Assembly (NCBI RefSeq): GCF_054482525.1
Contig: NZ_CM137006.1
Strand: one strand, 5' to 3'
Length of the DNA stretch: 64,000 nt
Every line of letters starts with the position of its first letter. Position 1 is the stretch's first letter. Of this stretch, positions 15,801 to 18,800 are shown piece after piece. Position numbers: made by a program.

Positions 15801-18800
15801 TCGCGTATTAACAGTTATAAAGGTCAGCCTGTCACCCGGCTTGCCGTTATGCTGAATTTACTGGTTTTTATTCGTTCCAGTGAACTCAGATACGCCCGCT
15901 GGTCTGAAATTGATATTGACAATGCCATGTGGACTATTCCAGCCGAACGCAAACCTCTGCCAGGGGTAAAATTCTCACACCGGGGCTCCAAGATGCGAAC
16001 ACCACATCTTGTGCCACTCAGCAAACAGGCTGTAGCCATACTGACAGAACTTCAGACATGGGCTGGTGAAAATGGTCTGATCTTTACGGGAGCACATGAC
16101 CCGCGTAAACCAATCAGTGAAAATACCGTAAATAAGGCCCTCAGAGTGATGGGGTATGACACAACCAAGGAAGTCTGTGGCCATGGATTCCGGGCGATGG
16201 CGTGCAGTGCATTGATTGAATCCGGCTTATGGTCAAGAGATGCGGTTGAACGTCAGATGAGTCATCAGGAGCGCAACGGAGTACGTGCCGCGTATATTCA
16301 TAAAGCAGAACATCTGGAAGAACGTCGGCTTATGCTGCAATGGTGGGCAGATTTTCTGGATGCAAACAGGGAGGAGTGTATCAGTCCGTTTGAATATGCA
16401 AAAGTTAACAATCCACTGAAAAGGTGACTGAACGCCATTTACACACATGCTCTTCCTCTTAAGGGGAAGAGCACCCGCCTCAATCAATTTCTTTTTTATG
16501 CCGGCGGAACCATCAGCCAGGCTGAGGTTCTCATTCAATAACTCAACGTCTTACCACAGAACAGAATTCACTGTATTATCATGGGCAACGTTAATCCCGG
16601 ACAATAAAAGGACACCGATGCCAGGCATCACAATTTTTATAGCCTGCAGATTATGGTCCATCCTTTTTTACAGGTTCAGAATATGACTGGCAAATTACGC
16701 TTTGAAGTGAACGATAACCAGGGCTGTTTCATATTTTCGGAAACCTGGTTTGGCTCGTTGCTGGATGAGTTTGAAGAACTGATTGATGCATACGATGCGG
16801 ATGAAATCAGCGAAACAAGTTACATCAACAAACTCAGGCGCCTTGCCCGACAGGAGAATGACTTTATTGATGTACACGCTCACTTGGCATACGTATTTCT
16901 GGAGCAGAATGCCCCGCGTAAGGCGCTGAATGCTGCCCTTAAAGGGCTGGCAGTTGGCAATCGTCTTATCCCTGAAGGTTTCAGTGGCAGAATCATCTGG
17001 ATACATCCTGACAACCGACCTTTTCTTCGTGCCCTCTATGCGGCAATCCTGGCAAATGCACATTTACGGCGTCATCAGGATGCCATCATGCTCATTGAAA
17101 AAATACTGGATTACAATCCCGAAGATAATCATGGTGCACGCTGGCTACTGGGACCGGAACTGTTACGCACTGGCGCTCATGAACAGGCACGCCATATACT
17201 GCAGGAACATGCAGATGAATTTTCACCTTACTGGTATGAACTCGGCCTTCTGCATTTTCTTAATGGGGAACTGGTAAAAGCTGCAACTGCATTTCGTCGC
17301 GGCTTTGCGGCAAATACTTACATCGCAGAAATACTGTGCGGAAATCTGCATCCATTTCCACTTGCTGTATGGCATAACTTTTCAGGCGGTCCGGATACTG
17401 CCGAAGATTATTATGCCACATACCACCCGTTATGGGGGCAATATCCGGAAGCATTGCTGTTTGTAAACTGGCTCTATAATCATTCCTCTGTGCTGCATGA
17501 ACGGGCAGAAATCATTAAATGCGCCGAAATGCTGATGCAGGAAGATGATTTCGAAATATGCGAAAGTATTTTAAGACAGCAGGAGAAGTTGCGTGAAAGA
17601 ATTGATGAGACGCTTTCTGAGAAAATTGTACAGAAATGCAGAAATATGAATGGTGAATATGTCTGGCCCTGGATATTGCCGTTTTCAGCGGCAGGCATGA
17701 AACATACTGGCATACAGTATCAGTAGATATTGCATTAGTGTATCCTGCACACAAGTAATAATTTATCCACCAATAATAACACTGTTAATGTCCCCTTCCC
17801 CTGGTTGTCAGCCAGGGGTTATCTTCTGAATATTTCTTTTGAAAAGGATAACACAGTAAATTATTTTTATGAATTATCCCATGGACTCATTAACACCCTT
17901 TCATAATGCTTTATTGTCAAACACGTTATGGCTGACATCAAAAAAAACCGGATTTCCTCTGCCAGCGGGTAATCACCTCCCCGGTGTTTTCGGTTGGTCT
18001 GGTTACTCCTGTCTGGTTATGAGCAAGATAATTGCTATAAACAGTGGAAAACTCATCGTACATAATCTGGTGATGAACATTACGCTTATTTTCCCTTGAC
18101 CGGAAGAATCAGAGGCTGCGGTTTCAGACTGTCTGCCGGTACATTCCTCTCTCCGTTAAAAACCATAACGGGTTCATTATCTTCGTCTGTCAGCAGATTG
18201 AATGGCGGTATATTTTCAGTACGAATGCCGGTCAGCCACTGAAAAATACCTGCGAAATGACGGGCACTGATTTTTCTGCTGACGGACTGATGAGACGTGA
18301 TGTCACTGGCGGTAATAATCAGGGGAACGCTGTAGCCTCCCTGCACATGACCATCATGATGAACAGGATTAGCACTGTCGCTGACCGACAGACCATGGTC
18401 AGAAAAGTAAAGCATGGCAAAATGACGGGAATGCCGGCGAAGGATACCATCAAGCTGCCCGAGAAAGTTATCCAGTTTACTGATGCTGGCGAGGTAACAG
18501 GCAATCTTCCGGGGGAACTGCTCCTGGTAATTATTCGGCCAGGAGTGAAGCCGGTCACACGGGTTCGGATGAGACCCCATCATGTGCAGGAATATCACCT
18601 TCGGAGAGGATTTATCCGCCAGCGCACGTTCTGTTTCCTGTAACAACAACATGTCATCCGTTTTACGGGAAGCGAAGCTGCCTTTCTTGAGGAAAACGGT
18701 ATGCTCCGCATCAGAAGCAATAACAGAGATGCGTGTGTCATGCTCTCCCAGTTTTCCCTGATTGGATATCCACCATGTGCTGTATCCTGCTTTTGCTGCC

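Follow-up and report, generated by a model that had tools for sequence, protein, structure and literature searches.

The first gene behind a P4-type integrase at pheU is sisA, a mobile shiA-family gene whose TPR protein is remotely related to Tcf25/Rqc1

Identity of the gene as sisA

The gene that directly follows the integrase of a genomic island in a 64,000-nucleotide stretch of contig NZ_CM137006.1 (RefSeq assembly GCF_054482525.1) is sisA, an already known gene, which uropathogenic and extraintestinal pathogenic Escherichia coli (UPEC/ExPEC) carry as their allele of shiA from the Shigella SHI-2 island. The whole stretch is referred to here as the window, and coordinates are window positions unless a locus is named. 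Its product is a tetratricopeptide repeat (TPR) protein of 347 amino acids (aa), and the family to which it belongs is shown here to be a bacterial branch of the Tcf25/Rqc1 superfamily, remotely homologous to it over the TPR scaffold core only. For the identity as sisA taken jointly with the mode of action that we favour, that of a non-enzymatic adaptor working in the bacterial cytoplasm, we estimate a probability of about 0.6.

The published sisA quantitative PCR primers (PMC2978726) matched the window exactly and once each, at 16905-16924 on the plus strand and at 17183-17207 on the minus strand, which identifies the open reading frame (ORF) as sisA. No match of the sisB reverse primer was found in the window even when three mismatches were allowed, whereas the E. 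coli B locus does contain it. At the protein level, the window sequence was 83% identical, over 100% coverage, to the representative of the Shigella flexneri ShiA cluster (P0007), and 86% identical to the ShiA-like allele of E. coli B, which falls into one 90% cluster with that representative. Published values for the two CFT073 homologues of ShiA are 83.3% identity for SisA and 96.8% for SisB (PMC13340028), while the ShiA-like protein ECB_03517 of E. coli REL606 has 347 aa and is 97% identical to ShiA (PMC3256949). Further, in the LAA island, a 1,044-bp gene that the Prokaryotic Genome Annotation Pipeline (PGAP) calls 'tetratricopeptide repeat protein', located beside a phosphoethanolamine transferase and Hes, 'corresponds to SisA' (PMC13340028). 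By identity, primer matches and a gene of 347 aa and 1,044 bp after a P4-type integrase, the window protein belongs to one family with ShiA of SHI-2 and with SisA and SisB of CFT073, and in the case of SisA it is one and the same gene.

The likeness to ShiA and SisA extends to the surroundings of the gene, in that each occupies the first position behind a P4-type integrase next to a tRNA gene (selC, pheV or pheU), as in the Shigella SHI-2 order selC, int, shiA (PMC6174562), and is often followed by a phosphoethanolamine transferase and an outer-membrane protein of the Hra/Hek/Tia/Hes type. In E. coli, the neighbours of sisA were always alike, with the integrase on the 5' side and then a convergent phosphoethanolamine transferase and a Hra/Hek/Tia-type outer-membrane protein. 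Next to sisA, the transferase is also found in two pathogenicity islands, LAA and SE (PMC13340028, PMC7545054); the outer-membrane protein goes by the name Hes in LAA (PMC13340028), and strain 779 has it annotated as 'tia' in its homologous block. No substantive difference from ShiA and SisA emerged; the window island lies at pheU, whereas UPEC 26-1 has the identical block at pheV, and comparison with the E. coli B allele shows the window sisA to be a mosaic.

The find itself is ordinary, since the gene has long had a name and about a third of complete E. coli genomes (1,961 of 5,426) contain the same DNA, where it is labelled 'hypothetical' or 'tetratricopeptide repeat protein'. The exact protein sequence was found on at least 1000 contigs under cluster names that include 'ShiA-like protein', and a ShiA-family gene was found on 80 plasmids. 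The original prediction, drawn from the window sequence, had presented an unknown protein without an assignable motif, a description superseded by a named ShiA homologue with published in vivo phenotypes and expression in urinary tract infection (UTI). It had rightly recognized an accessory island gene directly downstream of an integrase (the P4-type tyrosine integrase at 15162-16427). Alleles of the sisA/shiA type follow P4-type integrases at pheU/pheV and at selC.

The literature on the family starts with shiA in 1999 and with sisA in 2009. Mutants in Shigella shiA and in UPEC sisA/sisB are reported to cause stronger inflammation early in infection (PMC7545054, PMC4810123, PMC13340028). Deletion of hes-sisA in a Shiga toxin-producing E. 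coli strain lowered virulence, biofilm formation and adhesion alike (PMC13340028). With regard to expression, shiA is induced anaerobically in an FNR-independent manner (PMC4229854), and sisA transcripts were present in urine from six of eight women with UTI (PMC2978726). No molecular mechanism for ShiA or SisA was reported in the literature found.

Start codon of sisA

The 357-aa ORF originally predicted at 16653-17726 on the plus strand is real, but its start was set too far upstream. Translation almost certainly starts from the next ATG in frame, at 16683, which yields a coding sequence of 1,044 bp (16683-17726, plus strand; 347 codons plus stop) consistent with primers, PGAP start and homology. 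This start was chosen because RefSeq/PGAP annotates 16683 in identical copies, because homologues from many phyla begin at the second methionine (alignment A1), and because the E. coli B allele shows no DNA homology upstream of 16666. Moreover, an AGG lies 9 nt 5' of 16683, whereas a Shine-Dalgarno sequence is absent at 16653, and the published sizes agree (347 aa for the REL606 ShiA-like protein, PMC3256949; 1,044 bp for sisA, PMC13340028). The 357-aa version was found only as an older annotation (P0385). The in-frame extension of 10 codons from which that annotation starts (16653-16682, plus strand) for the most part precedes the conserved block shared with the E. coli B allele and, to judge from the sequence, is probably not translated. 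The coding sequence itself is under purifying selection, with a dN/dS of 0.13-0.15 against the diverged E. coli B allele.

Fold of SisA and relationship to Tcf25/Rqc1

SisA is a soluble, acidic protein of 40.2 kDa (pI 5.4), in which no transmembrane segment, signal peptide or known secretion signal was found (highest 19-aa Kyte-Doolittle hydropathy mean, 0.88). An AlphaFold2 model based on 67 homologues reached a predicted local distance difference test score (pLDDT) of 92.5 and a predicted template modelling score (pTM) of 0.88, and consists of a small N-terminal beta-hairpin followed by 17 helices that form a TPR solenoid. In line with this, the Pfam family TPR_19 matched SisA weakly, with 26.0-26.2 bits against a cut-off of 25, and Pfam TPR families matched 51-64 of the 67 family members. 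The ANAPC3 family scored 27.5 bits on the 357-aa ORF and 26.4 bits on the 347-aa protein, the latter below the cut-off of 27.2 bits. With a TPR-clan match and a helix-turn-helix repeat architecture, SisA belongs among the canonical TPR proteins, and the earlier description as helical and possibly TPR-like is borne out by both the profile match and the all-alpha model. Neither an enzyme domain nor a DNA-binding domain was detected in the Pfam and NCBIfam scans, and the NCBIfam matches were partial only and all far below their cut-offs.

When the model was compared with known structures, its best match was yeast Rqc1 in the complex of ribosome-associated quality control (RQC; 9ofv_v), the chain that Foldseek ranked first, and the three-dimensional similarity to the Rqc1 core exceeded that to generic TPR proteins. 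Sequence searches of the PDB with the SisA protein, which gave nothing significant, and with two profiles returned generic TPR proteins only and did not retrieve Rqc1; a viral structure library likewise returned generic TPR or Sel1 proteins only. At the level of profiles, Pfam Tcf25 (PF04910, gathering score 24.2 bits) was matched by six of the 67 family members, two of which scored 25.1 and 26.0 bits when rescanned (P0074 and P0093), and by a sister family of 281 aa with shared motifs (30.9-43.1 bits). The matches of P0074, P0093 and the sister family were long and colinear, spanning profile positions 23-267.

Profile-profile comparison gave the same picture. A human TCF25 fragment, 99% identical to XP_016878543, was used to gather authentic eukaryotic TCF25 sequences, and 20 of these made up the TCF25 profile (A4), whose numbering was calibrated on the published positions L191, Y194, F195 and F298. 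With hhalign, the broad bacterial profile (A6) aligned to A4 with a probability of 97.0% (E 1.2e-10) over 255 colinear columns, and the narrow bacterial profile (A1) aligned to TCF25 with a probability of 71.6% (E 3.5e-5). The invariant bacterial residues N111-R112 were aligned with the invariant ENR of TCF25, P146 and D148 of SisA with its conserved P-x-x-D, and W251 and W263 with both of its invariant tryptophans. The F-I-D of SisA (residues 61-63) was aligned with the H-V-D of TCF25, which reads H-I-D in the human fragment used.

In these alignments, SisA residues 10-277 correspond to about residues 242-532 of TCF25. Outside this shared core lie the RING-binding helices of TCF25 (188-202) and its C-terminal ubiquitin contacts (534-642); its polybasic tether (126-131) has no counterpart in SisA, and the ubiquitin-contacting F298 is aligned with E74 of SisA, a variable position. 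SisA differs from Rqc1/TCF25 in being about half its size and in having no equivalent of the disordered, polybasic N-terminal stretch that tethers the eukaryotic protein to the ribosome, of the helices that bind the RING domain or of the C-terminal segments that bind ubiquitin. Because the functional elements of TCF25 fall outside the shared core, SisA is not filed as a functional orthologue; by sequence comparison, it shares with Rqc1/TCF25 the scaffold and not the known functional elements. E. coli is not known to possess Ltn1, Rqc2 or a ubiquitin system, and no Ltn1/Rqc2-type partners were present among the gene neighbourhoods examined. The link, being remote and confined to the scaffold core, does not amount to the confident homology to a characterised housekeeping-type protein against which the original prediction had been set. 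A bacterial origin of the Rqc1 TPR module was stated by Burroughs and Aravind (PMC6514570); no paper connecting that origin of Rqc1/TCF25 to ShiA or SisA was found in our literature search.

Two further leads towards the ribosome were discarded. Residues 27-87 of SisA (window positions ~16761-16943) gave a weak Pfam match to PAH_ZNF598 (E 6e-4), which was seen in seven of the 67 family members. This match, to a domain of the ribosome-collision sensor ZNF598, is curious given the Rqc1 relationship and probably reflects chance similarity between helical bundles. A neighbouring gene for ribosomal protein S21 was rejected as a ribosome link, as it is confined to a single Rhizobium rhizogenes lineage.

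Distribution and mobility of the family

The ShiA family comprises proteins of ~335-347 aa in 92 clusters (50% identity, E <= 1e-30) and occurs in Enterobacterales, Aeromonas, Pseudomonas, Photobacterium, Oxalobacteraceae, Rhizobiales, Sphingomonadales, Myxococcota and Verrucomicrobium, with homologues in soil and water Beta- and Alphaproteobacteria. Both in pathogens and in non-pathogens, its genes are shown here to be solo passengers of islands, plasmids and transposons. Their contexts consisted mostly of mobile-element and defence-island genes, namely those for Fic, HTH_17, helicases, restriction-modification (RM) systems, AbiE, HipA and relaxases, and insertion sequence (IS) elements. Neighbours that recurred were limited to HipA (three loci), Fic (two to three) and assorted RM, ATPase and IS genes, and some distant family members stood among ordinary metabolic genes. 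The 281-aa sister family was set among housekeeping genes, a context that is uninformative.

Within E. coli, the gene is found behind different integrases. The 347-aa allele of E. coli B (BL21), 86% identical, stands behind the integrase at selC, which is only 42% identical to the window integrase, and the DNA shared with E. coli B comprises only the gene and ~400 bp downstream (16666-18127). Since alleles this similar follow integrases this different, and since the shared block is small, we regard sisA as a cassette that is not bound to one integrase. Some island copies persist with the integrase replaced by IS1. Compared with the E. coli B allele, codons 1-247 of sisA are deeply diverged (dS 0.76), whereas identity is 99-100% in the stretch that starts near codon 271 and extends 400 bp past the gene; this implies a recombination breakpoint within sisA, at ~17415-17495 (codons ~245-270). 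Furthermore, the block of tRNA, integrase, sisA, transferase and outer-membrane protein genes at 14841-21200 is 99.8% identical to that of UPEC 26-1 (locus L001, 7442-13801). Because the block lies at pheV (yqgA side) in 26-1 and at pheU (yjdC side) in the window, one island head occupies either Phe-tRNA site.

An association with transposition was observed in Morganella, Serratia, Klebsiella and Pseudomonas amygdali (L005, 3325-4901; L047, L048 and L049, each 6001-7577), where a 340-aa homologue with 48-55% identity is encoded in a Tn3-family module, between divergent tnpA and tnpR. The gene overlaps the start codon region of tnpR by 4-34 bp, and the homologue thus belongs, as an operon member, to the transposition module. 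Lima-Mendez and colleagues reportedly described, in 2020, toxin-antitoxin pairs in Tn3-family modules between tnpA and tnpR. The ShiA-like homologues occupy exactly that position, translationally coupled to tnpR, in four genera; they differ from such passengers in being a single TPR protein and no toxin-antitoxin pair, and E. coli sisA adjoins a tyrosine integrase and is not part of a Tn3 element.

Other arrangements were seen as well. In Verrucomicrobium, the ShiA-family gene lies 30 bp after an ISL3 transposase gene. In Azovibrio, an HTH_17 (AlpA/excisionase-like) gene follows ~120 bp 3' of it, and at two betaproteobacterial loci (L002, 2241-5068; L019, 6628-9003) a Fic/DUF4172 gene is located directly 5' of it. 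The Aeromonas media plasmid pE31A (L053, 1808-2788 and 3501-4511) carries two to three tandem ShiA-family paralogues beside IS200/IS605-TnpB elements.

Proposed mode of action and alternatives

From its fold, SisA is proposed to be a non-enzymatic protein-binding adaptor or scaffold that probably acts inside the bacterial cytoplasm. Its binding surface would be built from the residues invariant in the family, that is, N111-R112-P113, D148-N149, R162, R205, Y213, W230-H231, W251, W263 and E273-R274, and the dampening of host inflammation would be an indirect result of a change that SisA causes in the bacterium. Action within the bacterium is favoured because the family is abundant in free-living bacteria, is present in laboratory E. 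coli B and has no ubiquitin or RING determinants. Several points weigh against this adaptor model. The role of adaptor is read from the fold, and neighbourhoods are not conserved: no conserved partner gene emerged from all-versus-all neighbour clustering of 33 distant loci or from a Pfam census of 87 neighbours. SisA itself has no Pfam Tcf25 match above the gathering score of 24.2 bits. What has been published is an effect on the host, and an effector would account for this more directly.

Such an effector could be a mimic of TCF25 that gets to host cells by lysis, in vesicles or along an unrecognised route, where it would bind ubiquitin and/or a RING E3 ligase and skew ubiquitin-dependent NF-kB and cytokine signalling towards less inflammation. 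We consider this quite unlikely, even though the phenotype does concern host inflammation (PMC7545054, PMC13340028) and the homologous eukaryotic core of TCF25 binds the Listerin RING domain and orients the acceptor ubiquitin (PMC12047659, PMC12215860). In TCF25, the parts that bind RING or contact ubiquitin and the polybasic tether are not covered by the region aligned with SisA, with F298 facing the variable E74, and SisA carries no signal peptide or known secretion signal. UPEC of the CFT073 type is not known to have a type III secretion system, which also counts against a host-acting protein, as does the frequency of the family in free-living bacteria and its presence in E. coli B. It is similarly doubtful that ShiA and SisA, as mobilome-borne relatives of the scaffold ancestral to eukaryotic Rqc1/TCF25, have kept from an ancestor the ability to act on large ribosomal subunits that have stalled or on nascent chains, or have turned to host ubiquitin/RING mimicry in pathogens. 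If either the ancestral ribosome activity or the host mimicry were true, it would be the first molecular mechanism for an immunomodulation phenotype known for 20 years.

Another alternative is an accessory factor of mobile elements, which would modulate or stabilise site-specific recombination, transposition or element maintenance. This would suit the position of the gene as the first after two very different P4-type integrases (42% identical) at pheU/pheV and selC, its Tn3 tnpA-tnpR position with the tnpR overlap, and its location next to the ISL3 transposase gene in Verrucomicrobium and the HTH_17 gene in Azovibrio. However, many loci have no recombinase nearby, proximity to a recombinase is expected of any passenger at the edge of an element, SisA has no DNA-binding domain, and island copies survive replacement of the integrase by IS1, so that we regard such a role as unlikely. 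The spread among non-pathogens and the operon fusion with the Tn3 resolvase nonetheless raise the possibility that immunomodulation is secondary to a general mobile-element function. The original prediction had pointed to regulators or phage-defence genes for this position, and a single-gene anti-phage defence or anti-defence protein in an integrase-proximal hotspot would be in keeping with the position itself and with distant homologues among RM, AbiE, HipA, OLD-like ATPase and Fic genes. Neither class was upheld, and a defence role is very unlikely: no family of PADLOC-DB 2.0 matched at E <= 1, PHROGs gave one insignificant match (E 0.22), SisA has no effector domain, its viral structural relatives are generic TPR proteins, the published phenotypes are unrelated to phage, and there is neither a DNA-binding domain nor a conserved partner.

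Finally, reviews describe ShiA as a 'putative quinone reductase/NADPH oxidoreductase' or as a 'transporter' (PMC7545054, PMC6174562), labels that trace to Moss et al. 1999. Repetition in both reviews is what speaks for an enzyme or transporter, and its probability is practically nil, as sequence and fold already refute it. Pfam and NCBIfam gave no match to an oxidoreductase or transporter family, the confident all-alpha TPR model contains no nucleotide- or flavin-binding fold, and there is no hydrophobic segment.

Regarding what is added here to a gene that databases still label 'hypothetical' or 'TPR protein', this consists of a correction to the start codon, an account of what the 'non-coding' tail contains (see below) and the assignment to the Tcf25/Rqc1 superfamily. 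The last offers hypotheses for the virulence phenotype, namely a protein-binding scaffold, ubiquitin/RING binding or ribosome association, and the invariant residues provide mutagenesis targets for mapping the function of SisA.

Flanking features and the wider island

Upstream of sisA, the gene order runs from dcuA-cutA-dsbD-yjdC to tRNA-Phe (14889-14964) and then to the integrase (15162-16427, plus strand), a protein of 421 aa with the Pfam domains Arm-DNA-bind_3, Phage_int_M and Phage_integrase. An Rfam scan of the region from 14.7 to 21.5 kb returned tRNA only, apart from sub-threshold chance matches. A candidate sigma-70-like promoter at 16551-16579 (plus strand), ~100 nt 5' of sisA, matches the consensus at 9 of 12 positions; it lies outside the homology with E. 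coli B, which starts at 16666, and is thus not conserved.

Downstream, the roughly 360 bp of non-coding DNA noted originally do separate the stop codon of sisA from the next gene (359 bp, 17727-18085), but the stretch is not featureless. A terminator-like hairpin at 17798-17818 (plus strand), 72 nt past the stop codon, has a 9-bp stem with six GC pairs and a T-rich tail and falls within a block showing 99% conservation between the window and E. coli B. Most of the stretch is explained, from sequence similarity, by a frameshifted transferase-gene relic on the minus strand (17886-18078), which corresponds to ~65 codons from the C-terminal end. It was detected by tblastn with a 557-aa phosphoethanolamine-transferase allele from locus L012, residues 489-536 and 516-554 of which matched in two frames with 48-54% identity. 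The relic abuts the intact 500-aa transferase gene and survives, 99% identical, in E. coli B, which has lost the transferase itself. Over it, PGAP annotates a hypothetical ORF of 76 aa on the opposite strand (17869-18099). The intact gene, for a phosphoethanolamine transferase of the sulfatase family (18086-19588, minus strand; Pfam Sulfatase and EptA_B_N), is convergent with sisA, and is followed by the gene for the Hra/Hek/Tia/Hes-type outer-membrane beta-barrel (19770-20525, minus strand; Pfam OMP_b-brl), the recurrent neighbour of sisA.

Further along the window, the region at 24035-63824 looks like a virulence island of the PAI-II(J96)/UTI89 type, and the matching locus of UPEC 26-1 is annotated with papX, sfaY and focH. 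Within it, an ORF of 1014 aa (54049-57093) has the size of CNF1, and ORFs of 478 and 707 aa (58040-61618) have the sizes of HlyD and HlyB, these identities being suggested by size only.

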